A stretch of DNA of 64,000 bases from a virus. Lineage: Duplodnaviria; Heunggongvirae; Uroviricota; Caudoviricetes. Below, one piece after another: positions 1-24,960 of the stretch. Made by a program: the position numbers and the translations under genes. The DNA lies in the IMG/VR virus record IMGVR_UViG_2700989400_000004, positions 1 through 64,000 of that record, one strand, 5' to 3'. The notes beneath the pieces were generated by a model. The model worked only from the letters and a program-made list of their open reading frames with translations. It did no database searches and was not told the DNA's origin. Numbering within the stretch: the stretch's first letter is position 1; each line of letters starts with the position of its first letter.

Positions 1-201
1 TCATCGTCTCGGTTTGTCCGGTTTCCGCCACTGATACGGCCTCACAACATCATGCTGGTGGCGTTCCTGTTGCAGCACAACGGAAACAGGCACTGAACAC
101 CTGTTAATTTTGCTTCGTGGCGGCTTGATTCCGGTAATGCTGCGGATCATCTCCAGCAAATCGGCTTCGGTGATGGTCATGGCTTTCCTGTCAGCACTCA
201 T
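1..201 (-). CDS. hypothetical small protein
   Basis: Complete 66-codon ORF with stop at 1-3; internal ATG (MTITEADLL) preceded by GGAAAG; no motif recognised. Confidence 0.25.
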   Translation of the reverse strand: MSADRKAMTITEADLLEMIRSITGIKPPRSKINRCSVPVSVVLQQERHQHDVVRPYQWRKPDKPRR

Positions 202-229
202 ATCACATTAATACGTTCATTACGATGGA

Positions 230-814
230 TTATCCCGTTTTAGTGACTAACCATTGCAGAATAACGATAATTAAATATGTTAATGTACCAGTTCCAAGAA
301 GTATTAATAATTGATAACAACGTAGAGCAATATTACTAATCGATTTTTGCATTACGATATTCACTAACTCAGCCACACACTCTTTAGATCTTATCGATAG
401 AATGCTTGGAACTTCTCTATTTATTGATAATATTTCACATTGAATAGACTCACCTGGTGCGAGGCTTTCAAGCCTGATAATATAGCGACCATCCTTTTCA
501 ATATTTTCTTCAACATGGTGGACAGGCCAAAAATTAATATGCATTGGCTTATAGTTAAAAACCAATGATATATTAGTAGCACTTTCTCGCCCTTCATTAA
601 CAAGAATAATCGATCGTGTATACACCAATTGTGAGTTAGATATTACTTCACCACTGGTGTCCCGTAATGGTTCATGAACAAGAAAAGTAAATCCATGCTG
701 ATAACCATAGGATAACTTTGCCTTGCTTTTAAATCTGTTATTCAGCATCCATGTAAAAATAGCAATAAAAAAAGAAAATATTTCTTTCCCATAAAGACTA
801 AAAAAACTCATCAC
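230..814 (-). CDS. hypothetical membrane protein with hydrophobic segments at both termini
   Basis: 194 aa ORF in markedly AT-rich DNA; hydrophobic N- and C-terminal stretches; no family recognised. Confidence 0.45.
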   Translation of the reverse strand: MMSFFSLYGKEIFSFFIAIFTWMLNNRFKSKAKLSYGYQHGFTFLVHEPLRDTSGEVISNSQLVYTRSIILVNEGRESATNISLVFNYKPMHINFWPVHHVEENIEKDGRYIIRLESLAPGESIQCEILSINREVPSILSIRSKECVAELVNIVMQKSISNIALRCYQLLILLGTGTLTYLIIVILQWLVTKTG

Positions 815-929
815 AAACTTCCCTCAGTAACCTGATTCTGTTGTTAAAGTTACCAGCACTATAGTCATTCATTCACATTGCGACAAGAAGGTTACAGCAC
901 GCTCAATCACACCTCAGAAAATCTTAGAG

Positions 930-1146
930 AAGGTTGACACACTTGACACTTTTCCGCGAAAAACCTTAACAAAACTTAGCATTTCTAAGCATGGCAACTT
1001 GACACTTTTCGCGATTTTTTCTGCTTTTTGATGTGGCAAACATGGCGCAAGACCAGTAATGACGGGGCTTACAGCGAGGTTGACACTTTTTCGTGTTCAG
1101 AGTGTAAAGTGTCAACCTTGCAAGCTGCTCAACTTGACACTTTTTG
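930..1146. repeat. cluster of TTGACAC(TTTT) repeats: five direct copies plus one inverted
   Basis: Direct copies near 933, 943, 999, 1080 and 1134; inverted GTGTCAA at 1110; seen directly in sequence. Confidence 0.6.
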
Positions 1147-1152
1147 CGGCCG

Positions 1153-1695
1153 TTAATGACCTGTTTTCTCCCATTCAGCCAGGGCGTTTAGTCCTGCCTC
1201 GCTCCATGATTCAAGTTCATCAGGATAATCACCTGCAACATAGCAGAGTTCACAGCGCAGCATACGAATTGCCAGCCTGGCATTACCCCGCAAATTGTAT
1301 TGTTCAAAGTAATGCTGTCCTTCATCATCCTCAAGGCAGATAGCACCATCATCAAGAAAGTGTGCTTCCCAGCCTAATTCCCCGGCTGCATCCTGCACAC
1401 ACTGCTTTATGTCATCGTCCGTTACTGGCGCAGGAATTTTACCGTCTCTGTCCCTGACAGCTTTCCAGAACTCGCCCCACGTCATTTCCAGCGTTCTCTC
1501 AGGCCACATTTCAGAAACAGTGTCTTTTCCCTGTGATGGTGGGCTGTTTCGCCACTCTGTCGCCTCCATATCAATTTTTTTACCCGACATGACCACCTCG
1601 CCTTTCTCGATCCAGTCGTAAACTGTCTGGCGGCTTACACCTTTGTATTTGGCGTATTCGGCTTTACTCATCAACATGTGGCTCACCTCATGCAT
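1153..1695 (-). CDS. helix-turn-helix DNA-binding protein (Nu1/excisionase-like N-terminal HTH)
   Basis: N-terminal MSKAEYAKYKGVSRQTVYDWIEKGEV resembles winged-HTH of small-terminase/excisionase-type proteins; start uncertain. Confidence 0.45.
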   Translation of the reverse strand: MHEVSHMLMSKAEYAKYKGVSRQTVYDWIEKGEVVMSGKKIDMEATEWRNSPPSQGKDTVSEMWPERTLEMTWGEFWKAVRDRDGKIPAPVTDDDIKQCVQDAAGELGWEAHFLDDGAICLEDDEGQHYFEQYNLRGNARLAIRMLRCELCYVAGDYPDELESWSEAGLNALAEWEKTGH

Positions 1696-1776
1696 ATACG
1701 ATAAACATTCACTTCATGCGAAAAAGGAATTCGTTGTGGGTATGGCGGAGAGGGGCAATCACCGCCCCTTGCGGAT

Positions 1777-2049
1777 TCAGTTACGCCAGGATGGCTGGCT
1801 AAGCGTGGTTTTCATTACATCGTTGACGACCTGTTTTACGATTTCTGTGTTGGCAGTCGTGCTTTCAACATCAACAAAACCATAATCGCCAATTTCCACC
1901 GTCAGAGATTCCAGTTTTTTCCCCAGCGCGTCTGGCAACTCTCCACTGAACCGGTGCTGAAGATTTTCCACCAGCAACGCCCTGAATGCCTCGCTGTTCT
2001 CTTTTTTCTGCCATAGCTGGCGTTTATCCACTCTGATATTTAATTTCAC
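1777..2049 (-). CDS. hypothetical acidic protein
   Basis: 90 aa ORF; start overlaps stop of upstream small gene (ATGA). Confidence 0.35.
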   Translation of the reverse strand: MKLNIRVDKRQLWQKKENSEAFRALLVENLQHRFSGELPDALGKKLESLTVEIGDYGFVDVESTTANTEIVKQVVNDVMKTTLSQPSWRN

Positions 2050-2213
2050 AGTCTCACCTCTTTAAGTGCCTTATCCATCAGTTGCCGGGCTATAACATGA
2101 ATTGACGGTGCCACACCAAGCACAGATTTCTGACGCTCTTCGTCCTGGATGCGTTGCAGGGCTTCGATCTGCCTCCGGGAAAGTAAAACTGGCTTTACTC
2201 CGTGATTTTTCAT
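2046..2213 (-). CDS. small ribbon-helix-helix-like protein
   Basis: 55 aa from internal ATG; beta-strand then two helices pattern (KPVLLS / RRQIEALQRI / APSIHVIARQLM). Confidence 0.35.
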   Translation of the reverse strand: MKNHGVKPVLLSRRQIEALQRIQDEERQKSVLGVAPSIHVIARQLMDKALKEVRL

Positions 2214-2302
2214 GATGATCCCTTCTGAATGACAATAATTGCAATTATTGCAATTATTGAAATGATACCAGAGACAATTGCAATAAATGAAACGAAAAGC
2301 AT
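2210..2302 (-). CDS. small hydrophobic peptide (30 aa)
   Basis: MLFVSFIAIVSGIISIIAIIAIIVIQKGSS; AAGGTTGG Shine-Dalgarno upstream; stop overlaps next start. Confidence 0.25.
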   Translation of the reverse strand: MLFVSFIAIVSGIISIIAIIAIIVIQKGSS

Positions 2303-2491
2303 CAATAAACCAACCTTCGGCACTGAATGCTCTGATTTTTCTGCAAAGGTATGGCAGATGTTGGTGCATGCAAACATAAAGGCAATAGCAGAAGAAGCTG
2401 CGGGGAGTGAAAAGGGGAAGTTTTTATAAATACACGATTGTCGCCTCACTGCAGGTTAACAGCCACAAGCTCCATGATAATAACTTGTTAA

Positions 2492-2815
2492 TTATTTCAT
2501 CAGATTTTTCATTATTTGCGCGATTGAGTACACAAGCAAAAACTCGGCAGCCGCAAGAGTATAAAAAACATAAATTCGCTTAGCCCACCGACGATGAAAG
2601 AACTCCTCAGCATGGCCGGATGTTCGAGATACAAGCCATGCACCTACTGCACACAGAGCAGGTGCAATGAGCACAGTTATAAACCAGATTGTGATGCCCA
2701 TCCCATGCCTACTGATAATAGCCATTGGTATTGCAAAAATGAATGTTAGAGCAGCATTAGCTAATAGAATATCTTTTAAAGTATTTTCAATTAGTTTTGC
2801 TAGATTATCTTTCAT
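2492..2815 (-). CDS. hypothetical multi-pass membrane protein
   Basis: 107 aa, several hydrophobic helices, AT-rich. Confidence 0.4.
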   Translation of the reverse strand: MKDNLAKLIENTLKDILLANAALTFIFAIPMAIISRHGMGITIWFITVLIAPALCAVGAWLVSRTSGHAEEFFHRRWAKRIYVFYTLAAAEFLLVYSIAQIMKNLMK

Positions 2816-2844
2816 CTAATCCCCCACGTTGAACATTAATATAT

Positions 2845-2865
2845 AAAAGCCCCTTACTAAGGGGC
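2845..2865 (-). terminator. rho-independent terminator after lipoprotein gene
   Basis: GCCCCTTA/TAAGGGGC stem followed by T-tract on minus strand. Confidence 0.55.
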
Positions 2866-2879
2866 TTTGCACGGATTGT

Positions 2880-4022
2880 TTAAAGGGAACTTTTTTTCGC
2901 CCCTTCAATTTCTGCCTGACAAATTTCGTCATTTGTAAATGAGTACTGCAGATAGACATATCCCTGAGTGGAATTGTTCGCTCTGGCCTCAATAGATATA
3001 GTATCAATATTGTTTTTTAATGGTATTTCTTTTGTTCCCTTCCATGTGGCAGATAAGAAGCGTTCTTTTTTGTTTAGCCCCCTCATCCAGTCCTGAGGAT
3101 CTTTCCAAATTGAACCAGCCAGCAAAAAGTCTGTAGTATCAGCCTTTCCATACAGAGAACTTAAAGAATTACTCAATTCTTCAAACTTTGATTTAAGAGC
3201 CAATCCATAGCTATCAGTATCAATATTTTTTCCTAAAGCCCGTATTTGACATAAACCAGCTTTCGGGGAGATCAGCAAACCATACATTTCAAAATCTGCG
3301 TTTTGCTTCGGTAATTTATCAGAAGTATACAGATTCACACTGTCTGGTAGTGGCTTGAGCTTAGCACCGATCATATCTTCGATGTTTTTCTGTGTAAGAC
3401 CGGCTTCTAAGCCAAACGGACCATCCGCTGGCGGGAGTAAAGGAAGTTGCTCTTGGGAATTTTTGGCTGTTACTTCCGTTTCAGTACTGTTTTTTGCGTC
3501 ATTAGCTTGTACTGATGCCAGCTTAACTTCAGCGAGGCCATACTTGGCTGTGAGGTACTTTTGCTGCAACATTGCCATGGTCTGCTCTTCAGTGGCAACA
3601 GTAGATAATTTTAGTACCTTTATCAGACCACCACTATACTGACGAGCATCAGCTTTGGCTTCGTTGATTTTTGCATCTAAGCTGTCAATTTCAGTTTTAA
3701 TTGAAGCCGCAAGCTCAGGATCAGGTTTTACTCCAGATACAACAACATCAATTTTGGCACCTGATTCAATAGCATTAATACGCTGTTCCAAAAGCGCTTT
3801 ATTAGTTCCTAATATTTCCAGTCTTGCTGTTGTCAGATTTTTTATCAACCCACCAGAAAACTGCTGGTCAACTTCCTTAGCTGCTGATATTTCACCTTCC
3901 GTTTGCGACAGTTCAGCTTTAAGAGCAGCTACTTCCTGTTTCTGTTCTGGAGTTAACTCTTCTGGCCCACATCCGGTTAACATTACTATACCGACTAATG
4001 TTGCAATTAAAGTTTTATTCAT
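2880..4022 (-). CDS. lipoprotein with repeated QxxSGGLIK motif
   Basis: Signal peptide plus lipobox LTGC; 380 aa; two copies of (Q/R)Q(F/Y)SGGLIK. Confidence 0.6.
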   Translation of the reverse strand: MNKTLIATLVGIVMLTGCGPEELTPEQKQEVAALKAELSQTEGEISAAKEVDQQFSGGLIKNLTTARLEILGTNKALLEQRINAIESGAKIDVVVSGVKPDPELAASIKTEIDSLDAKINEAKADARQYSGGLIKVLKLSTVATEEQTMAMLQQKYLTAKYGLAEVKLASVQANDAKNSTETEVTAKNSQEQLPLLPPADGPFGLEAGLTQKNIEDMIGAKLKPLPDSVNLYTSDKLPKQNADFEMYGLLISPKAGLCQIRALGKNIDTDSYGLALKSKFEELSNSLSSLYGKADTTDFLLAGSIWKDPQDWMRGLNKKERFLSATWKGTKEIPLKNNIDTISIEARANNSTQGYVYLQYSFTNDEICQAEIEGAKKSSL

Positions 4023-4156
4023 ATCCCTATTCCAAATGAAAATATTCAGATTAATCTTATCAGGAACCCAGATGCAATTGAATATTCATCTGCTCAGCAA
4101 CGTAGTAGATTTCCTCAGAAAGCATCAACAAAAAACCAAGAGAATCCCATCCTCTG

Positions 4157-4444
4157 TTACTGACTACAATTGTTCTTTTTTTGGTATTTCCTGAATGCCT
4201 CACCATTGGGCTGATGTAATCCCATCCCGGCATGTGCCCGGCTGATGGTTTCGCGCATCTCCCCGAAATTATCCTGCCTTGCTGGTGGGCGTGCTGCCTT
4301 GTGGATACATTCCGCGCGACGTTTTGCCGCCTGTTCCCGTGCCTTGTCATCATTCGCCAGCATGATGACCTCAGCCCACCGCGCCGCCGCTCTCCGGTAC
4401 AGTCCACGCGCTTCCAGTGCTTCCGCTTTGCTGTCGTGAATCAT
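4157..4444 (-). CDS. PerC family transcriptional activator
   Basis: 95 aa; N-terminal MIHDSKAEALEARGLYRRAAARWAEV typical of PerC-like proteins of P4-like elements. Confidence 0.6.
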   Translation of the reverse strand: MIHDSKAEALEARGLYRRAAARWAEVIMLANDDKAREQAAKRRAECIHKAARPPARQDNFGEMRETISRAHAGMGLHQPNGEAFRKYQKKNNCSQ

Positions 4445-4998
4445 GCGCCTGTTTTCTCCCTGGCTGCCCGGCGCTGGCGTTTGCGCTTCTCATTCAGCGC
4501 CATCAGCCGCATTTCTGCCTCGTTCTGTTTCTGTGGTGTCACCTCGCCGCACGGCTGGCCTTTCAGGTCATAGCGCACCCCACCAGCCATTAAGGCGCGG
4601 TAATAGCGCGGACACTGCGCATAAGATGCCAGCGTCGCACGTAATGCCCCTGGACCGAATGCCAGCCCCCTGACGGCGATATCCTGCATCAGGTCGTCGA
4701 ATATCCCCACCTTAAGTGGCTTCGGTGCTTCCCGGCTGAATAATTCAGGCCACAACTCAGTGAGACGGTTAACGCGCCTGCGGTTTTTGCGCTGGCGTTT
4801 GGTCATATGCCGCCACGGTGTCGCCCCTGTGGGCTTCTGCTGCGCTTTCTGGTTACCGGGCATCACTTTATGTGCCGATGTGGTTTTATCCTGCTTCTGT
4901 GCCGCCTGCGTCGTTTTCTGCGGCGTGCCGTAAATACCTTTCGGTTTTCTGTTAATGGTCAGTTTTGTCATGCTCTGCCCCATCATTGTTGCCGTCAT
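4441..4998 (-). CDS. ProQ/FinO-domain RNA chaperone-like protein
   Basis: LKVGIFDDL, RATLASYAQCPRYYRAL and RYDLKGQPCGEV align with the ProQ N-terminal domain (LKIGIFQDL, RSALRLYTSSWRYLYGV, RVDLDGNPCGEL). Confidence 0.6.
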   Translation of the reverse strand: MTATMMGQSMTKLTINRKPKGIYGTPQKTTQAAQKQDKTTSAHKVMPGNQKAQQKPTGATPWRHMTKRQRKNRRRVNRLTELWPELFSREAPKPLKVGIFDDLMQDIAVRGLAFGPGALRATLASYAQCPRYYRALMAGGVRYDLKGQPCGEVTPQKQNEAEMRLMALNEKRKRQRRAAREKTGA

Positions 4999-5149
4999 AT
5001 CGGCACGTAAAAATAAAACAGTCTCATTGTCAGTTACCTGTCAGCTTTTATGCCTTTTCCGGGTGGGATGGCTGACAGTAGTCAATCGTAATACAAAATT
5101 TGAACAACCTTTTTTTCTGTACTCTATAAGGCGTAAAAAAACATTTTTT

Positions 5150-5430
5150 ACCGGGATATCGGGATATAAACAAAAAAACCCCATTTATTTCATAGCGTTA
5201 TGTGATTTTTCATATCCCGCCATATCCCGGTAAGTTTTTTTTTGCTTATGCATCAATAAGATATTGCGGGATACATTCCGGGATACGGTTATTTTGTTTG
5301 TTTTACAACCACTCGTAAACCTAAATACCGGGATACGGCGGGATACAGCGGGATACGACAACAACACATAAATAACTGATATTTATGCAATATATTTTTC
5401 ATATCCCGATATCCCGCATATCCCGCGATT
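5150..5430. repeat. iteron cluster, about 12 copies of CGGGATA in both orientations (putative satellite replication origin)
   Basis: AT-rich 300 bp immediately 3' of the primase gene; direct and inverted CGGGATA/TATCCCG groups near 5152, 5210, 5265, 5330 and 5400. Confidence 0.6.
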
Positions 5431-5457
5431 TTTGACCCTCTGCGAGCGTAGGTTGTG

Positions 5458-7590
5458 CTATTCGTCTTCTGCCTGATCAATCAGCACGATAAATCGCTGC
5501 TGTGTTCCGTTAATCTTCACTGTTTTCGATGTCCAGCGACCAGGTTCTGCACAAACCAGCATTCCGGCTTCTTCCAGCGCCTGACACCCAAAGTTCCTGG
5601 ATATACCGCATAAAATTTCGCTATCAAACACTGACGGGATAATGTGATATTCGGGTTTTCCATCCTCACGCTTACCGCTGACAAGATAGCCTGCAAGATT
5701 GCTTATACGGGATGCATAGTGGTTATCCATATCCCCATTGCTTTTCCCGTAGGTATAAGGCTGAAAACGACTCAGGGCATGGCGCTGAATAAAGTCACGG
5801 GCGCGACTGATGACCTGATATTTTTCCCGGTTTTCCAGCCCGAAATCCTGTAGCCAGTCATCAAAAGCCCGTTGCGTTGCTTCCCGGCATTCTTCAGCTG
5901 TCCAGCCAGTAATTGCGGTGGCAAGCTCTCCGGCTGCATCCAGCATGGCGAATCGCGATGCCACTCGCCTTACCTGTGACGAGGCATTTTCAGGCAGATT
6001 TCCCAGCCAGGCATTTTCTTTATCTGAAGTGGTGTTGATAGCCAGCTCCTTGTGAGCGGATAACCAGCGCACCCACTCACGTCCCGCAGCGCCACAATAA
6101 TTTGATGAAAGTCGCTTTATGGCCCTGGCATGTTGATCACCATCGTCATAACCGTTAAACACCGTTGTATCGGTAAAGGGAATGCTTAGCAGTCGCACCA
6201 GTTGCCCTGCCTTTGGGGCAATTCCCCCTTTTAACAGGAAGGTTTCAAAATCTTCTTCTCCGGTGCTTAGTGCCGCTATTTTCCAGCGCATTACCGCACG
6301 ATTACCGCCGTCCTTGCGCCCCTGAATCCTGCCCACACCGTTAAACAGGCTGTAGGCGGATTGCGCAATGTCATTAACCCTTCCTCCCTGACCAATTTCA
6401 TCAATAGGGATAAAACCGTCATTACGTGCAGCTGCTTCCACTGTCAGCCCGTGCCGGGTGGCATCCCACGAGAGTTTAAGCATTTCAGGGTCGCCATAAA
6501 GGCTGGTGGCGGCCTCCACAGTCGTGGTTTTCCCCGCTGACGACTGCGCGAAAAGATGAATACCAAAACAACTACCACCCACAAGGGAATTTAGCGGGGC
6601 TGCCAGCCCGACCAGCACCCCAAGCATCATTGAGTGATTGCCACGCATCAGAGAAGCAACATTATTTCGCCATTCATGCACCGTGCCCCTGACAATATAG
6701 CCTTTGATGGCGGCAGATCCGCCGCAGAATGCTACGGGACGGTCAGGCACACCAATCACCTCGCCATCAGGCATAACATAGGCTCCACAATGCCAACCTG
6801 CTGTTGATGTGACCTCCCACACCGTGCGATCTCCATGACGTTGCAGGTATTCCGCCAGTTTGTTCAGTAAATGGGCACTGGTAGTGATTGCAACTCCCCG
6901 CCCACGTAATCGCGCCCATCCTGCGGGCATACCGATTTCATTGCGCGGCATCGCTTCGTAAATAATTTTTTGTGTCCCTTCCGGGATCATTTCAATGATC
7001 AGATACGCTTCCCTTCCGTCGTTACCAATACCTGCCGTGCGCATCCGGTCACTCAGCCAGGTTTCTTTATAATTCATCTCCTCTGCCCTGGTGTTGGGGA
7101 TTGGCTCGATATACCAGAGCGCCCCGTCTTTTTCGGTAATATGCGGTTTCATGGGGTCTGTTTTACCGGGTGATCCACCAGCTATTCCGATTCCTTCAGG
7201 AATGGTTTCCCCGCGCTCTGTCTGTTCGCGGATCCGTTGCAGGTAGTCGCGCCAGTTCTCCGGCTCCCGGTCGGTGATGCCTTTGTATAATTTCGCATCC
7301 TGTACGCCAGCCAGCGCCAGCTTTTCAGCGATAGCATTGATCTGGATTGGCTCTATCTCCCCCGCGATATAAACACGCGCAAAGCGGCGCTCATCGTCGA
7401 TAATGCGGATATTAGCCAGATCTGCCAGTTGCGTTGGCCCCAGGTAAACAGGTGGCACGTTATCGCCGTGTTTTCGTCCTTCGCTTTCAATCCAGTGTTG
7501 AGCATGGGCGTAAGCATCCGTCCCGGCAAAAATGATTACCTCGGTGAATTTATCCTTTGGCTGATATTTTAAATTCGGTGCGTTTTTCAC
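5458..7590 (-). CDS. primase/helicase replication protein (Toprim plus NTPase, P4 alpha-like)
   Basis: 710 aa; Walker A-like AQSSAGKTT; domain order typical of satellite primase-helicases. Confidence 0.8.
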   Translation of the reverse strand: MKNAPNLKYQPKDKFTEVIIFAGTDAYAHAQHWIESEGRKHGDNVPPVYLGPTQLADLANIRIIDDERRFARVYIAGEIEPIQINAIAEKLALAGVQDAKLYKGITDREPENWRDYLQRIREQTERGETIPEGIGIAGGSPGKTDPMKPHITEKDGALWYIEPIPNTRAEEMNYKETWLSDRMRTAGIGNDGREAYLIIEMIPEGTQKIIYEAMPRNEIGMPAGWARLRGRGVAITTSAHLLNKLAEYLQRHGDRTVWEVTSTAGWHCGAYVMPDGEVIGVPDRPVAFCGGSAAIKGYIVRGTVHEWRNNVASLMRGNHSMMLGVLVGLAAPLNSLVGGSCFGIHLFAQSSAGKTTTVEAATSLYGDPEMLKLSWDATRHGLTVEAAARNDGFIPIDEIGQGGRVNDIAQSAYSLFNGVGRIQGRKDGGNRAVMRWKIAALSTGEEDFETFLLKGGIAPKAGQLVRLLSIPFTDTTVFNGYDDGDQHARAIKRLSSNYCGAAGREWVRWLSAHKELAINTTSDKENAWLGNLPENASSQVRRVASRFAMLDAAGELATAITGWTAEECREATQRAFDDWLQDFGLENREKYQVISRARDFIQRHALSRFQPYTYGKSNGDMDNHYASRISNLAGYLVSGKREDGKPEYHIIPSVFDSEILCGISRNFGCQALEEAGMLVCAEPGRWTSKTVKINGTQQRFIVLIDQAEDE

Positions 7591-11416: not shown

Positions 11417-12667
11417 TTATATTTCTCTGGCTATTGGCAGTGTGGTTACGTTTTCGTGAGCACCTGCCAGTATCTCTAATCGCTCTGTCCACATATCCAG
11501 CGCGTTACGTTTCGCATCAATATAGCGGGAGTGGTTATAGACTCGTTGCATCCCTGGCATCTGGTGGGCGGTAAGTTGCTCGACAATATGCGGATCCACG
11601 CCTAAATCGTTCAGCATCGTGGTAAACGTGCGCCGTATATCGTGCAGGGACCAGTGAGGATGGTTTAATTTTTTGTGCGTAAATCTGCCGTATTGTGACA
11701 CGCTGGCTTCCTGTTTCAGTTCTCCGAGTAATAACCCTGTGTGCCTGTTCTGCTCCACCAGTTGCGTGACGAACGGCAAAATGCTTTCCGGTATTGGCCT
11801 GAATATGGCGACCTTCGTTTTGCTGTGTTCTTTCGGTACCGTCCAGAGCATTTCCTTAAAATCCCACTCCCTGATCTCCGACAGCCTCAGTTCTCCAGTT
11901 CGGCAGCCAAACACAATCAGGAGGCGGATTAGCGCGCTGTAGTAGGGCGGGAATATTTTTTTATCCAGCGCCTGTAATAATTCGCCCAGTTCTTTGTTAC
12001 TAAGCACGCGTTCGCTTATGCCTGGCTTTTTGCCAACGTCCACCACGTTGAGATCATCCAGAACGTTACTGACTGCGTAGCGACGTTTTCGGCAGAACTT
12101 AAGCGCCTGTTTACACGCCTGCATCATGTGACCAGACGTTACAGGGGATTTTTTGCGTATCCGGTCAAAACAGGCCAGCCAGTGACGTAACTCGCATTTA
12201 TCCAGTGGCATATTGCCAATATGCTGTATGACGTGATTATTCAGGCGGCTGTTCAGGGAGACGTAATCGACACGGTTTTCCTTTACGTGCATTTCCAGCC
12301 AGTAGCTGATCGCATCACCCACCGTTACCGGCTTTAGTGCTTCCTGTATGGAGTAATTAAGCTCATGGCGTGGATTTTTTCCTTCTGCCAGCCATGCGCG
12401 ACACTGTGCCGCTTTTTCCCTGGCTGCTTTCAGGCTCAGATCAGGATAATTTCCCAGCTTCAGGCGTTCCGGTGATACCAGGCGTCCAGCTCCTGCCCTG
12501 TAGGTGAAATACCAGGTTAACAAGCCGCTGGTGGAATGCCTGACGCTCAGGTTTCCACCGTCATTAAGAAATGTGGTTTTTGGGGCTGGTGTGCCGTTGA
12601 TTTTTCTTAGCTGTGTATCGCTCAGTTTGTTAAGTGCTCTGCTCATAATTTTGAATCCGGTCATCAC
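11417..12667 (-). CDS. int: tyrosine-type site-specific integrase (P4-like)
   Basis: 416 aa; N-terminal arm-binding-like domain and C-terminal catalytic region (HxxR...Y); start uncertain. Confidence 0.85.
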   Translation of the reverse strand: MMTGFKIMSRALNKLSDTQLRKINGTPAPKTTFLNDGGNLSVRHSTSGLLTWYFTYRAGAGRLVSPERLKLGNYPDLSLKAAREKAAQCRAWLAEGKNPRHELNYSIQEALKPVTVGDAISYWLEMHVKENRVDYVSLNSRLNNHVIQHIGNMPLDKCELRHWLACFDRIRKKSPVTSGHMMQACKQALKFCRKRRYAVSNVLDDLNVVDVGKKPGISERVLSNKELGELLQALDKKIFPPYYSALIRLLIVFGCRTGELRLSEIREWDFKEMLWTVPKEHSKTKVAIFRPIPESILPFVTQLVEQNRHTGLLLGELKQEASVSQYGRFTHKKLNHPHWSLHDIRRTFTTMLNDLGVDPHIVEQLTAHQMPGMQRVYNHSRYIDAKRNALDMWTERLEILAGAHENVTTLPIAREI

Positions 12668-12668
12668 A

Positions 12669-12692
12669 ATTAACTACACCATTAACTACACC
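12669..12692. repeat. tandem 12-bp direct repeat ATTAACTACACC x2 next to int start
   Basis: Seen directly; candidate arm-type or regulatory site. Confidence 0.5.
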
Positions 12693-18483: not shown

Positions 18484-20568
18484 TTACTCTTCGCTTCCGG
18501 TCAACTGCTTAACAAGCGCAACCAGTTCGCTTACCTGATTTTCAAGCGCGGTAATGCGTGCATCTTGAGTAACTATGGCTATATCTTGATCCTTACATAC
18601 TCTGACGAGATATCCAACGATGCCGGAGTAATTAACACCCAAAACAATTTTTTCACCAGTAAGCACGGTGCCGTCACTTGTCGGTCCTGGCATCTCTTTT
18701 GTTATTGTTACTTCGCGAACTACTTGCGGCAATATCTTTTGCCATTCCTGTGCTATAACACCAGCGCACGCCCTATTATCACCAATAAAATTGAATGTAT
18801 ATCCGTTAACGTGCTGCAATAATTTTCTGGCCTCCTGTATTTCCATAATATTTTCTTTTTCATTTATATCTGATGTTTGTGTTAATTCTGAGCAGGAGAC
18901 TTTACCGGATGTGAAGATATCTGCGGTTGATGTTATTTTTTGTGAGAAGTTGGCTGTTGCTGTTACGTTCATTTTTCCAGCAAATACAGCGTTGGAGTCC
19001 GACTGAAGTTTTGTTTTTGCTCTTACTGTACCTGCGGTTATTGTTGTTGGCGATGATAACTGCTCCGCATAGGATTGCGCATTGGCTTCTGATTCTGCGG
19101 CTGCGGCTGCTGCTGCTGCTGCGTTTTCCGCTTCAGATGTTGCGGTGGCGGCACGCTCTTCAGCCAGCACGCTGTAACCCTCTGCAGCGTCTCTCGCGGC
19201 TATGGCTTCATCCCGCGCGCTGGTCGCTGTGTTAGCGGCGCTGGTCGCGGCGGTCGCGGCACTGGTAATGGTAGCCGCCTGTTCAGTTGCAGTGGTTGCC
19301 TGCGCCACTGCTTCATCGCGGGCCGCTTCAGTGGCGGTCTGCGCGGTCTGTGCCGCTTCTGCGGCTTGGGTGGCGGCGGTTGCTTTTTGGGTTGCTGTAT
19401 TTACGGCGGCTGATATCTTCGATTCGTCTATAGCAATACTACTAGCGCTTGCTTCCGCTGCTTCTGCGGCGGTTTCTGCGTCGTTTTTATGCTCAAGCGC
19501 TGCGGCGGCGGCAGTGGTTGCCTCATTCGCTTTTTGGGTCGCTGTGTTAGCGGCGCTGGTCGCGGCGGTCGCGGCACTGGTAATGGTAGCCGCCTGTTCA
19601 GTTGCAGTGGTTGCCTGCGCCACTGCTTCATCGCGGGCCGCTTCAGTGGCGGTCTGCGCGGTCTGTGCCGCTTCTGCGGCTTGGGTGGCGGCGGTTGCTT
19701 TTGCTGCCAGTTCTTTTTCATCGATAGCGATATTAGCGGCGGTTGTTTCTGCTGCTGCGGCTGCGGCTTCGGATTTCTCCGCTTCTTCCTTCGCATACAT
19801 GCGCAATTCATAAACAGCGGCACGATCTGCCGCTACGGCTTCGGCATCTGTATTGGCTGCTGCGGCGGCTTGGGTGGCGGCTGACGCCTGTTCAGTTGCT
19901 ACTGTTGCTCGTTCAGTTGCGACGACTGCTCTCGCGGTAGCTTCGTCGCGTGCTGCTTCGGTAGCAGTCTGCGCGGTCTGTGCGGCGGTGGCGGCATTGG
20001 TGGCGGTAGTAGCTTGTTCGGTCGCTACGGTTGCCTGTGTGGCGGCGGTGGCGGCTTGTTCACCAGCCAGCACGCTGTAACCTTCTGCGGCATCTTTCGC
20101 GGCAATAGCTTCATGCCGCGCGGCGGCGGTTGTTTCAACGTCTGCGGCGGTGGCGGCGGCGTTGGCGGTTGATTGCGCTGTTTCTGCCTGAATAGCGGTT
20201 AACAGTGCTTCTACCTGCGCGGCATCACCATAATTTTTCCAGTATTCAACGGCGGCATAGATCTCTGATTCCTGCCCGGTGAAATAGCGTAATGCTTCCG
20301 CTACGTCTTGCGCCAGCCCGTCAACTGAGATCGAATCGCACAGTAAAATACTGTAAGCAGTACCCGCCGGAATATCCGGTGATGCTGCCGGGGTTATAGA
20401 TAATTCCGTTTCACTGACAATTTCAGTGATGGAAAAGATCTGAATAGGGTCGCTTTTTACAATAACTGTGCACCCCACGCGGATCATGGATAAGGGTGCT
20501 TTAAAATTTGTACCCGTCCCGGTCAGCGTGTTACCGGATACGGCAATACTTCCAATGGTGTAGATCAT
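18484..20568 (-). CDS. side tail fiber protein with Ala/Thr-rich tandem repeats and C-terminal intramolecular-chaperone (S74-like) domain
   Basis: 694 aa; repeated ATQKATAATQAAEAAQTAQTATEAARDEA units; C-terminal SDINEKENI autoproteolysis-type motif. Confidence 0.7.
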   Translation of the reverse strand: MIYTIGSIAVSGNTLTGTGTNFKAPLSMIRVGCTVIVKSDPIQIFSITEIVSETELSITPAASPDIPAGTAYSILLCDSISVDGLAQDVAEALRYFTGQESEIYAAVEYWKNYGDAAQVEALLTAIQAETAQSTANAAATAADVETTAAARHEAIAAKDAAEGYSVLAGEQAATAATQATVATEQATTATNAATAAQTAQTATEAARDEATARAVVATERATVATEQASAATQAAAAANTDAEAVAADRAAVYELRMYAKEEAEKSEAAAAAAETTAANIAIDEKELAAKATAATQAAEAAQTAQTATEAARDEAVAQATTATEQAATITSAATAATSAANTATQKANEATTAAAAALEHKNDAETAAEAAEASASSIAIDESKISAAVNTATQKATAATQAAEAAQTAQTATEAARDEAVAQATTATEQAATITSAATAATSAANTATSARDEAIAARDAAEGYSVLAEERAATATSEAENAAAAAAAAAESEANAQSYAEQLSSPTTITAGTVRAKTKLQSDSNAVFAGKMNVTATANFSQKITSTADIFTSGKVSCSELTQTSDINEKENIMEIQEARKLLQHVNGYTFNFIGDNRACAGVIAQEWQKILPQVVREVTITKEMPGPTSDGTVLTGEKIVLGVNYSGIVGYLVRVCKDQDIAIVTQDARITALENQVSELVALVKQLTGSEE
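19226..19706. repeat. in-frame tandem duplication (315-bp period) inside tail fiber gene
   Basis: Near-identical about 165-bp segments at 19226-19392 and 19541-19706. Confidence 0.7.
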
Positions 20569-20608
20569 CGCAATGACTCCATTATGTTAATTAACGGAAT
20601 AATTCTAC

Positions 20609-20651
20609 CATTTTGTGATCTGCGTTGCATTTTATGCTTGCACAAAATGTA
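20609..20651. promoter_or_regulatory. palindromic element CATTTTGTG-N25-CACAAAATG upstream of tail fiber gene
   Basis: Perfect 9-bp inverted repeat enclosing TTTTGTGATCTGCGT; related copies upstream of L, tape measure and M. Confidence 0.5.
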
Positions 20652-20753
20652 TTTATTGATTTATGCCAATACAATAAATCATTTACAGTGAATGTAACTT
20701 GCCACAATTTATGATGTAAATTATTGGCGTAAAAATAAAAACAATGCATAAAA

Positions 20754-20771
20754 ACGGGGCTTATGCCCCGT
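20754..20771. terminator. bidirectional hairpin terminator between J and tail fiber
   Basis: ACGGGGC TTAT GCCCCGT flanked by T-tracts on both strands. Confidence 0.5.
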
Positions 20772-20778
20772 TTTATTT

Positions 20779-23700
20779 TTATGCTGTAGTTGATGCGCTA
20801 AATGATCCTGTTCCTCTTGATACTAGCATTGTCGGAGAATACAAAGCCATACAATATGAGTAGCCTTCTGATGCTGATGTTTGTGGGCAATATATTTCCC
20901 CGGTAATCCTTGATGTTGTTAAACCAGAAAAAGCGCATTGCACTGTTAATGTGCATCCACCATAAGGTACGTAGTATTGAATTGTTTTACTTTGACCTCC
21001 GCAACTAAACGTTACGTTATAAGTTGATCTATATTCACCAGATGTCAATGTAATCGTTGCCATAAGCATAACTGATTTCGTCAATGCACTGGTTGTGCTG
21101 TCGTTATATGTGATGGTTGCTTTATAACTTCCGTTATACCCAAGTACTCGATCTGGACCAACACCCATGTTAGCAACGTCACCAACAAATGATGTGGCTT
21201 CAACTACTCCCTTAAATTTACCGTCAGTTGCGTTAATAGTACCATTAAACACCCCAGAATTAGCGTATACCGTGCCGCGTACTGTTACGTTATTAAATTC
21301 AGCGTTACCATTCTTATTAATCATCCACCCGGCGGAACCGGAAACATAATTGGATGATTGGATTTGCTGCGCAATTTTTGCGGTAGTAATCGATGCGTCT
21401 TTAATAAACGCTTCGCGCACATACATTGCACCATTCGTAACATAGAAAGGTGTCGTATATGTGCCGTTTGCCGCCGTCATTAACACAAAGCGGTCAACAA
21501 GGAAAATGCACTGCGATTGTGTGCTTGTGCCGCTGCCAGTCAGGCCAAGCGAGATACCGGAAAAATATTTCATTCCGTTACTGTCTGCGGCGATCTTAAC
21601 GCTCCACGTTGCCGACATGTCTGATTCAAGGCTGGTGATAGCGGTTTTGTTTTCCTCAATTGATACTGATTGCCCCTCAATTGACGCCGTGATACTTTCG
21701 ATCTGTGTGGCGGTCGATTCCTGGTAAGACGTAAACGCTTCGCTCCACTCCGTAATCGACGCCTCGTTTGCTTCCAGTGATGCGCTAATCTGCGCAAACT
21801 GTGTAGCGTTGGCTTGTTCATGTGTGGCTAATGCCTGATCCACGCTGCTGATCGCTGATGAGATATCGCCGTCTACTTTCGCCTCAAGGTTATTGATGGA
21901 TTCAGCCGTGGATGATTCCAGATCGGTGATTGTCTGGTTGATCTCCGTTAAGCTGGCCTGGATATCCTCGTTTACCTGGCTTTCCAGTTTTTCGATTGAT
22001 TGGCTTGTTGAGCTTTCAAGCGTCGCGATGGTCTGCTGTAGTTCGGTTACGTTAGCGCTGATTTCGTCATTAACCTTGCTTTCAAGCGTGGTAAGCGCCT
22101 GCGCGGTCGCTTCCTTCTCTGTAGCAATAACTGAATCAATGCGCTCGATTTCCGCCTTCGTTTCTGCTTTCTGGTTTTTATATTGCGCCGTTAACGTGGT
22201 GCGGGTGCTGGTGTTAGCCAATGAGTTATTCATAAGCGCAATGGCTGCGTTTTGCAGGCTGGCGCGGGTCTGCATTAGCTCGTTTTCTTGCTCCGTCAAT
22301 TCTACGCTGATTTCGTTAATCTGGCTTTCATGCTCCCCGATCCCGTCCTCGTTGTTTTTTACACGTTCTTCCAGATCGGCGGTTGACTCCTTCAGGTCGG
22401 TAACAGCCTGGTCAATGTCTACCGTGGTTTGTTTCAGTTCTTCCACGTCACCCATTAAACCGCCTGTTACTTCGCCTATGGAGTCCTTGATCATGTTCTG
22501 GAATTGCTCGCCTTCCATAACTTCATTCAGCACGGCGTCTGTAATTTCCTCGAAGTTTTCGGAAGGTTTACCGCTGGCTTCGATAAAGTCAGATACACCG
22601 AAAGCGTTTTTTGTGCGCACGTAAACGTAATACGTATGGCCCGTTGCCATACCGCCGAAGGTCCATTGATACCCGCGCCCGGTGAATTGCGCTGATGTTG
22701 TTACCTGGCTGAAGTCAGTGATCTGGTTTTCTCCGGCATAATAGAATTCGTAACTGGTATCGGTCGTTAGCGTGGTGCTGCTGATCGGGTAAACAGTCGC
22801 CTGGAAAACACCTGGCACCCAATTAACGCCGACCGGGGCCGCTGGCGCACCAATCACCAGATCTACAATACTTTCCGCCCCCTTCATGCCAGTGTCATTA
22901 CGCCCGCGAATACCCAACGTGTAATTCCCTGCGTCGAGGCCATAAAATTCATAACGGTAATTCGTGGTTTCATAACTTGCCACCACGCGCCCGTCTGCGT
23001 TATATACGCGGATTTCGAAGGTCAGGGGATGCGTTGTTGTCTGCGTCTCCCAGGTGGCGCGGCATTGAACCGTTTCTGACCCAACGTTTACCACTTTCAA
23101 ATTTTCGATGTTCGGGACACGGAAGTGATTTAGCGTGTCGCTACTGATTTCGAAGATTGCGCCTTCATCGACTACCGCCTGTTTGTTCGGGTCGTGCTGC
23201 GCGGCTTCGATGGTGTATACGCTGTTATTTTCGGTTTCGGCTACGCTGGTGATCCGGCATAAAACGGGTTTTGCTGCTTCAGTGGATACAGCGAAAACGG
23301 TCCCGTTACGAATCCACGCCGGGGCCGCCGCTAAGGTGATCTCATTTCCATTCACCCCGGTGATCTGGTGTTTTTTAAATTTGCCATCACTATCGAGCAA
23401 GCTGATGGTGTCGCCTGCGGTGATGTATTCTGAATCAACCTTATCGACCGTTATCACCTTGCCATTGTTCGCCACGATACGACCGCCTAAACGAGCGCCC
23501 GCGCGGTTATTGTCGAGGATCTCGATGATATCCCCTGGTGTAAAGTGAATCGCGTCACGGGCCATTTTAAACGTGAATTTTGACGGCTCGCGTTTTGCTG
23601 TTTCTATCAGCCACTTGCCCGCGCGGTACGCTTGCCCGCGTGATGTGCACCCGAACGCCTCTAACGTGGTTTCGTTGTAACCATCACGGGCGATCAGTTC

Positions 23701-24960
23701 ATCGTCTGCTACATACTCTTTTGATTGCTCCCAGCCGTTCTTCGGGTCAGTCCAAGATACGATCACGGCGTTATAACATTCCGCACGGGCGATACTTGAA
23801 CGAGTAAACGCGCCATCAACGACATTTGCATTTGTAATAGTGGCGATCGGATCTTGTGGCGCATCGATCATCACCGTAAGGCGTTGTCCGTCCCATAGCG
23901 CCATACCTCTGAACATCCCGGCGATATTGTCCAGTAAGTCGCGGGCGCTCATCTGCTCTGTAATGTACGCATTAAGCGTAACGCGCGGCTCAAGGCCGCC
24001 GTAACCATCATTGACTAACTGGTCGCAGTATTGGGAAAGCGTATATAATGCGCCGTCATCAACATCAATATAGCCAGCATGACGGGCAAGGCCAAAACGC
24101 TCGTTTTTAACCAGATAACGGAAGATCCAAGCGGGGTTATTAGTGTACGCCTGCTTGAAGCCGCCAAGCCATAATCCTGAGTAAGTGCGCGTTTCCGGGT
24201 TGTAGTTATCAGGGATATCAACAATCAGCCCGCGGAGGTGATAAGTGCGGGTAGGCGTGTCAGCGTACTGATCATGGTCGATCACTGCGCCAGCTATAGC
24301 CGTGTGAGGGTAAGATAGGTTATCGTCGATAATTTCACTGTAACTATTCCATCGTGTATTGTTGTTCAATAAATCGCCAGTGCTATCGGGTGTAATACGA
24401 CGAACCCGAATATCGAACGGGCTTTCACTAGGTGCGCAAATAATATGAGACTCAAGATATTCACCGCTAATTTTACCGGTAATAGAAACGGCTTTAACAG
24501 GCGTCCATATCGTTGATGATGATGGTTTTACGTCAATCATCATCATAACGGTTGAATTGTATTGATTCCCTTCATCATCGCTTTCTACAAGAACATCCAC
24601 CCCAACATTCAACCTGACTCGCGTCACGTTGGGATCGGATACAGTGCGAACTAACGGGGTGTCGTGTGTTACCTCGGTGTTAACCATAACGGTCGATTCA
24701 ATAGCATTAAAACCATTGATCGGCGATTGGTTAAGTGTACCAGGACGCCAGGCGACACTAACGCCGGGGATACTGACATGACCCGCAGTATCCGTAATAG
24801 GTGTATCATTAAGCATCACGCAGTTCAACGGCGCGGCAGCATTAACCGGACCGTAGATCGGGCCTTCACTCAATATATCTAATACGCGATAAAACTGTTT
24901 ATGATACAAATTGTCATTAAGTAAATCTGGTGTGCTACCGCCACCACCACCACCGCCCAT
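20779..24960 (-). CDS. host specificity (central tail fiber) protein, lambda J-like
   Basis: 1393 aa; size, position after I/K/L and N-terminal conservation; divergent coiled-coil-rich C-terminal half. Confidence 0.8.
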   Translation of the reverse strand: MGGGGGGGSTPDLLNDNLYHKQFYRVLDILSEGPIYGPVNAAAPLNCVMLNDTPITDTAGHVSIPGVSVAWRPGTLNQSPINGFNAIESTVMVNTEVTHDTPLVRTVSDPNVTRVRLNVGVDVLVESDDEGNQYNSTVMMMIDVKPSSSTIWTPVKAVSITGKISGEYLESHIICAPSESPFDIRVRRITPDSTGDLLNNNTRWNSYSEIIDDNLSYPHTAIAGAVIDHDQYADTPTRTYHLRGLIVDIPDNYNPETRTYSGLWLGGFKQAYTNNPAWIFRYLVKNERFGLARHAGYIDVDDGALYTLSQYCDQLVNDGYGGLEPRVTLNAYITEQMSARDLLDNIAGMFRGMALWDGQRLTVMIDAPQDPIATITNANVVDGAFTRSSIARAECYNAVIVSWTDPKNGWEQSKEYVADDELIARDGYNETTLEAFGCTSRGQAYRAGKWLIETAKREPSKFTFKMARDAIHFTPGDIIEILDNNRAGARLGGRIVANNGKVITVDKVDSEYITAGDTISLLDSDGKFKKHQITGVNGNEITLAAAPAWIRNGTVFAVSTEAAKPVLCRITSVAETENNSVYTIEAAQHDPNKQAVVDEGAIFEISSDTLNHFRVPNIENLKVVNVGSETVQCRATWETQTTTHPLTFEIRVYNADGRVVASYETTNYRYEFYGLDAGNYTLGIRGRNDTGMKGAESIVDLVIGAPAAPVGVNWVPGVFQATVYPISSTTLTTDTSYEFYYAGENQITDFSQVTTSAQFTGRGYQWTFGGMATGHTYYVYVRTKNAFGVSDFIEASGKPSENFEEITDAVLNEVMEGEQFQNMIKDSIGEVTGGLMGDVEELKQTTVDIDQAVTDLKESTADLEERVKNNEDGIGEHESQINEISVELTEQENELMQTRASLQNAAIALMNNSLANTSTRTTLTAQYKNQKAETKAEIERIDSVIATEKEATAQALTTLESKVNDEISANVTELQQTIATLESSTSQSIEKLESQVNEDIQASLTEINQTITDLESSTAESINNLEAKVDGDISSAISSVDQALATHEQANATQFAQISASLEANEASITEWSEAFTSYQESTATQIESITASIEGQSVSIEENKTAITSLESDMSATWSVKIAADSNGMKYFSGISLGLTGSGTSTQSQCIFLVDRFVLMTAANGTYTTPFYVTNGAMYVREAFIKDASITTAKIAQQIQSSNYVSGSAGWMINKNGNAEFNNVTVRGTVYANSGVFNGTINATDGKFKGVVEATSFVGDVANMGVGPDRVLGYNGSYKATITYNDSTTSALTKSVMLMATITLTSGEYRSTYNVTFSCGGQSKTIQYYVPYGGCTLTVQCAFSGLTTSRITGEIYCPQTSASEGYSYCMALYSPTMLVSRGTGSFSASTTA

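Follow-up and report, generated by a model that had tools for sequence, protein, structure and literature searches.

The int-distal third of the satellite

We analysed a 64,000-nucleotide stretch of viral DNA (Caudoviricetes; positions 1 to 64,000 of the IMG/VR record IMGVR_UViG_2700989400_000004; hereafter the window) with respect to the genes at 230-4022, which lie in the int-distal third of a 13-kb phage satellite of the Gram-negative phage-inducible chromosomal island (PICI) type. All genes of the island, the studied block included, are on the minus strand, as are the other features of the block, apart from the repeat array, which is given without orientation. In the direction of transcription, a gene for a 380-aa lipoprotein (2880-4022) comes first, followed by an intrinsic terminator-like hairpin (2846-2868), a gene for a 107-aa membrane protein with three transmembrane (TM) segments (tm107, 2492-2815), a region of conserved DNA motifs and palindromes (2214-2330) that overlaps a 30-aa open reading frame (ORF; 2210-2302), and the genes for a 55-aa ribbon-helix-helix (RHH)-like protein (2046-2213), a 90-aa protein (1777-2049) and a 174-aa helix-turn-helix (HTH) protein (1153-1677, or to 1695 when read as 180 aa). 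An array of AAAGTGTCAA repeats (932-1150) and a gene for a 193-aa membrane protein (p193; 230-811, or to 814 when read as 194 aa) complete the block. The initial annotation, whose listed ORFs are all present on the minus strand, had treated 230-4022 as one AT-rich cargo region of a satellite, and had left out two of its components, the HTH gene and the 338-bp spacer that holds five copies of AAAGTGTCAA.

Segment 1-4500 of the window was matched by megablast in 219 of 5,426 complete E. coli genomes, and roughly 100 of the 5,426, the O104:H4 strain HUSEC2011 included, carry 932-4500 at 95-97% identity, a figure estimated from an evenly spaced sample of the megablast ranking. Two indels were mapped by pairwise blastn against six sister islands. 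The first, 182-930, is replaced by ~73 bp in four islands (L003, L005, L006 and L007), in which homology covers 1-181 and continues from 931 on. The second, 2294-4142 (1.85 kb), is missing from island DE17 (L005), in which homology runs over 931-2293 and resumes at 4143, and the RHH gene directly follows perC. Both segments are therefore polymorphic, by presence/absence or replacement, between conserved flanks. The base composition agrees with a split into core and cargo, as the GC content is 0.325 for the 193-aa gene, 0.389 for the 107-aa gene and 0.401 for the lipoprotein gene, whereas the RHH, 90-aa and HTH genes are at 0.47-0.49, with an island mean of 0.473. In all six genes the substitutions relative to the Citrobacter sister island are biased towards third positions and they are therefore real genes; the lipoprotein gene, for example, has 82 synonymous and 28 nonsynonymous changed codons.

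It is thus well supported that the block is a mosaic, in which two AT-rich, swappable cassettes flank the core late operon of the satellite, rather than a single cargo region. The data also support the placement of the genes for p193, tm107 and the lipoprotein as variable, AT-rich cargo in accessory positions. The earlier description holds for the satellite setting and for the AT-richness and variability of these three genes, but the late operon that lies between them is core and is not AT-rich.

The late operon itself contains a third variable slot, situated after the RHH gene and before the HTH gene (L006:4008-5328 and L007:7007-11073). It holds the 90-aa gene in the window island, DE17, Citrobacter and Serratia, genes for a NUDIX and a DUF2213 protein in the ETEC1748 island (L006), and in the RM9088 island (L007) a gene at the NUDIX position (annotated hypothetical), a DUF2213 gene, a frameshifted hypothetical gene and a lytic transglycosylase gene (687 aa). 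L006 and L007 lack the 90-aa gene and retain the RHH and HTH genes, which are thus kept while the genes between them are swapped. The HTH allele of the window is only ~90% identical to those of L002-L004, although the RHH, 90-aa, 107-aa and lipoprotein products of these islands are 100% identical to its own; a breakpoint of recombination is therefore indicated between the 90-aa gene and the HTH gene.

The late operon and its repeat array

Upstream of the RHH gene, three ATTGCAAT palindromes at 2238-2245, 2247-2254 and 2277-2284 (there are 5 in the whole 64-kb window) fall inside what had been listed as a 30-aa peptide gene. Across 30 related upstream regions the DNA is conserved, with the motif GTTTCAT..TTGCAAT and a TATAAT-like -10 element, whereas no reading frame corresponding to the 30-aa ORF is. 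The frame lacks both a start and a stop in DE17, the ETEC1748 and RM9088 islands are open in another frame, the Citrobacter ORF is broken although the RHH protein is 93% identical, and more distant satellites often have no ORF here at all. Because the DNA is conserved while the reading frame is not, 2214-2330 looks like the promoter/operator of the late operon rather than a peptide gene. The RefSeq annotation has a plus-strand ORF at 2229-2429, for a 66-aa hypothetical protein (WP_057697092.1), that overlaps the same region and is without a counterpart in the Citrobacter (L020) gene calls; like the 30-aa ORF it is probably spurious, and the two would be by-products of AT-rich repeats. Annotators would do better to treat this upstream stretch as a promoter than as either ORF. 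In two distant satellites a CTG-N10-CAG sequence resembling a LexA box lies between the -10 element and the Shine-Dalgarno sequence of the RHH gene (L024:~1400-1450, L059:~7280-7330); most other distant elements have a CTG-N9-CAG box, and the box is absent from the window's own copy. The CTG-N10-CAG box recalls the LexA-controlled packaging operon of the Staphylococcus aureus pathogenicity islands (SaPIs).

The first gene of the late operon encodes a basic protein (isoelectric point (pI) 10.5) with a putative RHH fold, for which no Pfam match and no PDB sequence match were found. The protein is 43-100% identical across 30 distinct satellite contexts, always downstream of pri/perC, and on this comparison we take its gene to belong to the satellite core. 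Its homologues in other islands precede the NUDIX and DUF2213 genes or a gene for an unrelated 106-aa protein. The start of the 90-aa gene overlaps the RHH stop codon (GTGA), and the two genes are predicted to be translationally coupled. The 90-aa protein had been described as acidic, but it has 13 D+E against 13 K+R and a pI of 6.6. Its family is small, with 9 matches, and the order RHH-90aa-HTH is found in E. coli, Citrobacter (97% identity) and Serratia (65%); the 18 synonymous against 3 nonsynonymous codon changes relative to Citrobacter point to purifying selection.

The initial annotation had grouped the 30-aa peptide, the RHH protein and the 90-aa protein into a coupled trio resembling a toxin-antitoxin (TA) or small abortive-infection (Abi) module, in which the RHH protein would act as both antitoxin and autorepressor against a toxin that is either the peptide or the 90-aa protein. 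The ORFs do overlap in the window sequence, by ATGA between the 30-aa stop and the 55-aa start and by GTGA at the next junction, and several traits are shared with type II TA systems that have RHH antitoxins: the 55-aa protein is small and basic, a direct reading of it gives the beta-alpha-alpha-like pattern typical of such antitoxins, it is coupled to a small downstream ORF, and the ATTGCAAT palindromes upstream could be an autoregulated operator. The trio does not extend to related islands, however, as the start, frame or stop of the peptide ORF is lost in relatives, the Citrobacter island with its closely related RHH protein included. In a type I system the small toxin ORF would be conserved and kept by purifying selection, and an antisense RNA would usually accompany it, whereas the 30-aa ORF is not conserved and no Rfam family, hence no antisense RNA match, was found in window 1-5500. 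A type II system would be a conserved pair in which toxin and antitoxin occur together, whereas the partner of the RHH gene is replaced by NUDIX and DUF2213 genes or by the 106-aa gene in other islands and the RHH gene stands first in a longer operon, with the HTH/repeat module at its far end. In addition, the HTH gene always follows the 90-aa gene, which has the GC content of a core gene, and no toxin, antitoxin or defence match was obtained in Pfam, NCBIfam or PADLOC. Because the peptide is not conserved, the RHH gene is found without the 90-aa gene and nothing toxin-like is matched, the trio lacks the defining features of a TA or Abi module, and we consider this explanation very improbable.

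The acidic HTH protein (pI 4.6) is encoded at the position of small-terminase and Rpp genes and is a core satellite protein. Its N-terminus (residues 4-45) matches PHROG 57 (terminase small subunit) with an E value of 3e-6 and, weakly, the Pfam HTH_17/excisionase model (E 1.6e-4; 22.3 bits, below the 27-bit cutoff); a PADLOC match of the 180-aa reading to mad1 (E 7e-4) is a generic HTH match. Identity of the protein is 88-91% in L002-L007, E. coli sister islands whose neighbouring genes vary, and falls to 79-80% in a few IMG/VR contigs, to 74% in Citrobacter and to 55% in Serratia; a Hafnia satellite has a true Terminase_2 gene at the equivalent position. Directly after the HTH stop codon, in the 338-bp intergenic region, there are five exact AAAGTGTCAA 10-mers within 200 bp (943-1143), plus one GTGTCAA. 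No other exact copy exists in the 64-kb window, where ~0.1 is expected by chance. Every E. coli and Citrobacter sister island retains the array, with 6-7 copies, and in Serratia one exact GTGTCAA and one near-copy are left of it. As a candidate packaging or operator site, the array is probably a packaging site, judged from its sequence and surroundings. Integrase or Xis arm sites were also considered for the repeats and rejected, as the array is 0.6-1.5 kb away from the core of the attachment (att) site.

Because of the 3'-end position, behind ori/pri, the HTH type of the protein and the adjacent repeats, we give slightly better than even chances to the HTH protein and the array working like a packaging-specificity module. 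The sequence GGGCGGCGACCT of a lambda-type cosN was found nowhere in the island within 2 mismatches, and searches of the PDB, which holds the RppC entries 6HLK and 6HN7 (PMC6739421), with the single HTH sequence (E<=1) and with a profile (E<=10) gave no RppC or lambda TerS match. The pair is kept in all sister islands and is a candidate packaging-specificity module distinct from the Rpp/cos one.

The two cassettes

The p193 cassette (182-930; 0.75 kb) is an insertion relative to the empty slot. It is flanked on the att-proximal side of this 3' hotspot by a 59-aa ORF (1-180) whose product is 84-88% identical in L003 and L005-L007 and 75% in L004, and which in the islands with an empty slot adjoins the repeat array directly. 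A consensus scan located a promoter-like site, TTGTCG-17-TATAGT, at 858-886, upstream of p193 and within the cassette, and TATAGT is also present upstream of the Citrobacter copy of p193. An imperfect direct repeat of 16-17 nt (895-911 and 192-207) flanks the cassette; as a boundary it is weak, being equalled in 16 of 1000 shuffles, and was discarded. The AlphaFold2 (AF2) model of p193 is very confident, with a mean predicted local distance difference test (pLDDT) score of 96.7, and displays a helix (2-26), a beta-sandwich (33-141) and a C-terminal TM helix (160-192), in keeping with the terminal hydrophobic segments that had been noted for this protein. Because of positive-inside statistics, the beta-sandwich is probably cytoplasmic.

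The slot that p193 occupies is empty in some sister islands and filled with known defence systems in others, as recognised by PADLOC models. In O104:H4 HUSEC2011 it holds PARIS (AriA, E 5e-43; AriB, E 4e-22), in a Serratia satellite IetAS (IetA, 1e-75; IetS, 8e-43), and in Citrobacter bSEFIR (1e-113) adjoins the p193 homologue. In PICIs, immune systems are located at the 5' or the 3' end, and another accessory region follows pri (He et al. 2024, PMC11364771, citing earlier work of the same laboratory); because PARIS, IetAS and bSEFIR occupy the equivalent slot in sister elements, the p193 slot matches the published 3'-end immune hotspot. A profile search recovered 547 cluster representatives of the p193 family at E<=1e-3, nearly all of them 180-210 aa long, while a scan of the genome collection with a narrow p193 alignment recovered a single species. 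Among 94 diverse members, none has a PADLOC match and just one has a Pfam match, a weak one to CM2 (E 0.004); p193 itself has no Pfam match. Homologues occur in varied places: right behind the Terminase_2 gene that lies towards the 3' end of an unrelated Hafnia satellite; in two P2-like phages, close to the integrase or to the end of the genome; at one end of an inovirus prophage; beside a capsid-bearing element; and, in Serratia, as a lone chromosomal islet. A match of p193 in Yersinia phage vB_YenM_324 is the only one that tblastn against 50,697 phage records (INPHARED) returned for the proteins other than the lipoprotein. This distribution supports p193 as a putative mobile moron.

The second cassette (2294-4142), between perC and the late operon, encodes the lipoprotein and tm107. 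The lipoprotein has a signal peptide that ends in an L-T-G-C lipobox, reading MNKTLIATLVGIVMLTGC and conforming to the pattern [LVI][ASTVI][GAS]C of bacterial lipoproteins, in which G17, C18 and G19 are invariant in 38 homologues; the Gly at +2 suggests sorting to the outer membrane. Its internal repeat score is 76 against 27 +/- 5 for shuffled sequences, and both the lipobox and the repeats bear out what had been read from the translation. In the AF2 model, Cys18 is followed by two helical hairpins that form the repeats, a disordered linker (164-191) and a C-terminal alpha/beta domain (195-380; pLDDT ~90), which carries two invariant cysteines that in this model would fit a periplasmic disulfide. 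tm107 has three hydrophobic segments, as expected of the membrane protein that had been described, and is 71% identical in Citrobacter with the same third-position bias, but the only clear terminator, a 10-bp stem with 5 G-C pairs followed by a T-rich tail, lies between the lipoprotein gene and the tm107 gene, upstream of the latter, and is not one of its own. tm107 occurs only with lipoprotein copies of at least 92% identity and does not accompany the homologues of 64-88% identity.

More than 318 homologues of the lipoprotein, of ~380 aa, occur across Enterobacterales, none with a Pfam domain. Searches of the PDB by sequence returned chance or coiled-coil matches only, and tblastn against the INPHARED records gave no match at E<=0.01. 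Among viral models searched with Foldseek, a 182-aa lipoprotein of Erwinia phage Midgardsormr38 matched the fold of the C-terminal domain (E 1.5e-6). The lipoprotein is present in 50 IMG/VR contigs, among them other satellites, a lambdoid prophage and a Mu-like prophage. In Enterobacter hormaechei satellites a homologue directly follows the primase gene, in a further satellite lineage a copy of 64% identity lies between pri and the RHH gene, and in E. bugandensis a copy is found in an island remnant without satellite genes. In the lambdoid prophage the homologue (41-48% identity) belongs to a moron cluster immediately upstream of the tape-measure gene, and in the Mu-like prophage a homologue of the same identity range is immediately upstream of the endolysin gene. 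These contexts support the view that the homologues are accessory genes (morons) in other satellites and prophages.

The same contexts bear on a different explanation, in which the lipoprotein, with or without tm107, and the 90-aa protein would serve the satellite life cycle and not general defence, through interference with the helper, timing of lysis and release, or exclusion of superinfecting helper that protects the lysogen-satellite pair. The place of the lipoprotein gene between pri and the RHH gene is kept in diverged satellite lineages, PICI interference and packaging genes lie after ori/pri (PMC6739421; PMC11773190), and the prophage homologues adjoin a tape-measure or an endolysin gene. 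DE17, however, lacks the cassette and yet retains the perC, RHH, 90-aa and HTH genes (this island has frameshifts in the ProQ gene and in one hypothetical gene and may not be fully intact), the AT-richness and the terminator between the cassette and the late operon speak for a separately acquired unit, and the Enterobacter copy lies in a remnant without satellite genes. We consider such a life-cycle role distinctly unlikely.

Somewhat less unlikely, but still improbable, is that the lipoprotein, tm107 and p193 are host-fitness or virulence cargo unrelated to phages, for example in serum resistance, adhesion or tolerance of envelope stress, like the lysogenic-conversion lipoproteins of the lambda Bor/Iss type. 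All three products are envelope proteins, PICIs and prophages are generally known to carry virulence morons, the lipoprotein cassette adjoins genes for PerC and ProQ/FinO regulators, and the block is found in pathogens (O104:H4, avian pathogenic and enterotoxigenic E. coli) as well as in commensals. On the other hand, the p193 slot is common to PARIS, IetAS and bSEFIR, the predicted cytoplasmic location of the p193 beta-sandwich speaks against a role at the cell surface, and homologues in environmental Pantoea, Rahnella, Xenorhabdus and Hafnia show that the genes are not specific to pathogens.

The satellite, its cargo and known systems

The first 12.7 kb of the window lie within an island of 13 kb, a copy of which with 100% identity is inserted between smrA and abgR in E. 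coli strain 357900. A pair of imperfect direct repeats (69 nt each, 12,964 bp apart) borders the island; the left one precedes the window start by 345 bp, and the right one is at 12619-12687. According to the RefSeq annotation of the identical island and Pfam, it encodes an integrase, an HTH regulator at the AlpA position, an AntA antirepressor, an Icd-like protein, a DUF4222 protein, a DUF927 primase (5458-7590), ProQ/FinO (4441-4998) and PerC (4157-4444; Pfam E 1e-31), and it contains no structural or lysis genes. Because this gene set combines int, alpA and primase without structural genes and is bounded by direct repeats, in an island within the ~10-20 kb of its class, the element is, by gene content, a PICI-type satellite. 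A candidate for the replication origin is the AT-rich spacer (GC 0.383) between the ProQ and primase genes (4999-5457), in which ATTTTTCATATCCCG is repeated (5205-5219 and 5394-5408). Tail genes of a prophage start ~6 kb past the island (18484-24960) and encode a 694-aa tail-fibre-like protein with Ala/Thr-rich repeats (GC 0.60, strong AT skew) and a 1393-aa protein that, by reading of its translation only, resembles the lambda J host-specificity protein; the prophage is a possible helper for the satellite. Two circular 'plasmids' of 12-18 kb in PLSDB, L017 (NZ_CP148430.1) and L018 (NZ_CP146545.1), have satellite-type genes: one encodes AlpA, the other encodes AntA, a DUF927 primase, PerC and an integrase, and each has the RHH gene. 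They are probably excised satellites assembled as circles.

As the best overall explanation, in which we have reasonable though far from firm confidence, we propose that the block combines the core late operon with two envelope cassettes that act as exclusion or abortive morons. The operon, of putative packaging type, runs from the promoter/operator with its ATTGCAAT palindromes through the RHH, 90-aa and HTH genes to the AAAGTGTCAA array; the HTH protein would bind this array, which would tag the DNA of the satellite for a helper phage to package, in the manner of Rpp/cosB or TerS/pac. The 1.85-kb AT-rich cassette between perC and the operon supplies the periplasm-facing lipoprotein and the three-TM protein, and the 0.75-kb, very AT-rich cassette in the 3'-end hotspot, with its own promoter-like site, the two-helix membrane protein with its beta-sandwich. 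Both would be morons expressed from the resident island whose products act at the cell envelope and exclude or abort infection by competing phages, the lipoprotein by interfering with phage entry in the periplasm and p193 by sensing or blocking phage at the inner membrane. That at least one cassette has an anti-phage function, a reading drawn from context, we rate at just short of an even chance. More tentatively still, p193 could represent a large unannotated family of single-gene, membrane-anchored anti-phage proteins, with a cytoplasmic beta-sandwich between two TM helices and spread as a moron among satellites, P2-like phages and inoviruses, and the lipoprotein a second new family that blocks phage entry in the periplasm.

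Several observations weigh against the proposed explanation. The defence-system prediction that had been suggested as a check was negative, as PADLOC 2.0 recognised none of the six proteins, its only match being the one to mad1 by the 180-aa HTH reading, which is not counted among the six, and Pfam, NCBIfam, PHROGs and PADLOC applied to all ORFs returned only generic HTH and PerC/ProQ matches. In these databases and in the phage records no cargo protein is homologous to known defence or exclusion proteins, and the cargo proteins indeed belong to no recognised family in Pfam, NCBIfam or PADLOC, as had been stated. The position of the lipoprotein gene downstream of pri is kept in diverged satellites (64% identity where pri is at 40-49%), a constancy more in keeping with a semi-core gene of the satellite than with free cargo. 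Only the 3' slot, and not the lipoprotein slot, was found to hold known defence systems. The HTH protein lacks detectable sequence similarity to the RppC and lambda TerS chains in the PDB, the island lacks a lambda-type cosN, and the packaging role is argued from position, a weak N-terminal HTH match and the adjacent repeats.

Hotspot cargo in satellites is already known, whereas these cargo proteins are new to annotation databases. Satellite hotspots are a productive route to new anti-phage genes, and the island supplies two compact candidates from uncharacterised, widespread families, both in positions where validated systems (PARIS, IetAS, bSEFIR and Tai) occur in related elements. For experiments the 0.75-kb p193 cassette, a single-gene unit whose structure is modelled very confidently, is the first choice. 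Also delimited here is the late operon that a common E. coli satellite lineage carries, made up of the RHH gene, a variable slot, the HTH gene and the repeat array, with a presumed packaging mechanism that is not the described Rpp/cos one.

Among known systems, exclusion lipoproteins are the nearest counterpart of the 380-aa lipoprotein. Cor of phi80/N15 and Llp of T5 are exclusion lipoproteins of this kind. Ltp of TP-J34 is a superinfection-exclusion lipoprotein (PMC3952083) with tandem helical repeat domains behind its lipid anchor, an arrangement also seen in the 380-aa protein. With all three the latter shares its nature as a lipoprotein of a mobile element and a moron-like distribution in temperate phages and satellites, but it is far larger and has an extra C-terminal alpha/beta domain, and tblastn in INPHARED gave no match to the phage-encoded prototypes Cor, Llp or Tai. 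By analogy with Cor, Llp and Ltp, a role of the lipoprotein in periplasmic exclusion is a reasonable guess. For p193 the comparison is with small exclusion proteins of the inner membrane. HK97 gp15 is one of these. SieA of the temperate phage P22 is another (PMC10883804), and p193 resembles both in being a small, membrane-embedded moron product of a single gene at prophage or satellite ends, but is unrelated to them in sequence and differs in its N-terminal helix, ~110-aa beta-sandwich and C-terminal TM helix.

The closest analogue of the HTH/array module is Rpp-cosB of EcCICFT073 (PMC6739421). There too, a gene near the 3' end of an E. coli PICI adjoins an array of short repeats and encodes a small protein; the N-terminal HTH of this protein is of the TerS/MerR/excisionase type, to which that of the window protein may also belong. 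The window protein, by contrast, is acidic and has 174 aa against the 144-153 aa of Rpp, it is without an RppC or TerS match among PDB sequences, and the island is without a lambda-type cosN; on these sequence grounds we do not count it as a member of the Rpp family. The slot of the lipoprotein is analogous to the published position of Tai downstream of pri in PICIs (PMC11364771). In that slot the window island has two genes, for the lipoprotein and tm107. For neither protein did tblastn against the phage collection, which we take to include phi80, give a match, and thus no relative of the phage-borne Tai proteins was detected. Finally, although the cassette proteins match no known defence family, unlike the contents of the published PICI immune hotspots (PMC11364771), the architecture is the same in both, namely an int/alpA/pri element with two accessory positions, cassettes that are present or absent, and known systems in the 3' slot of sister elements.

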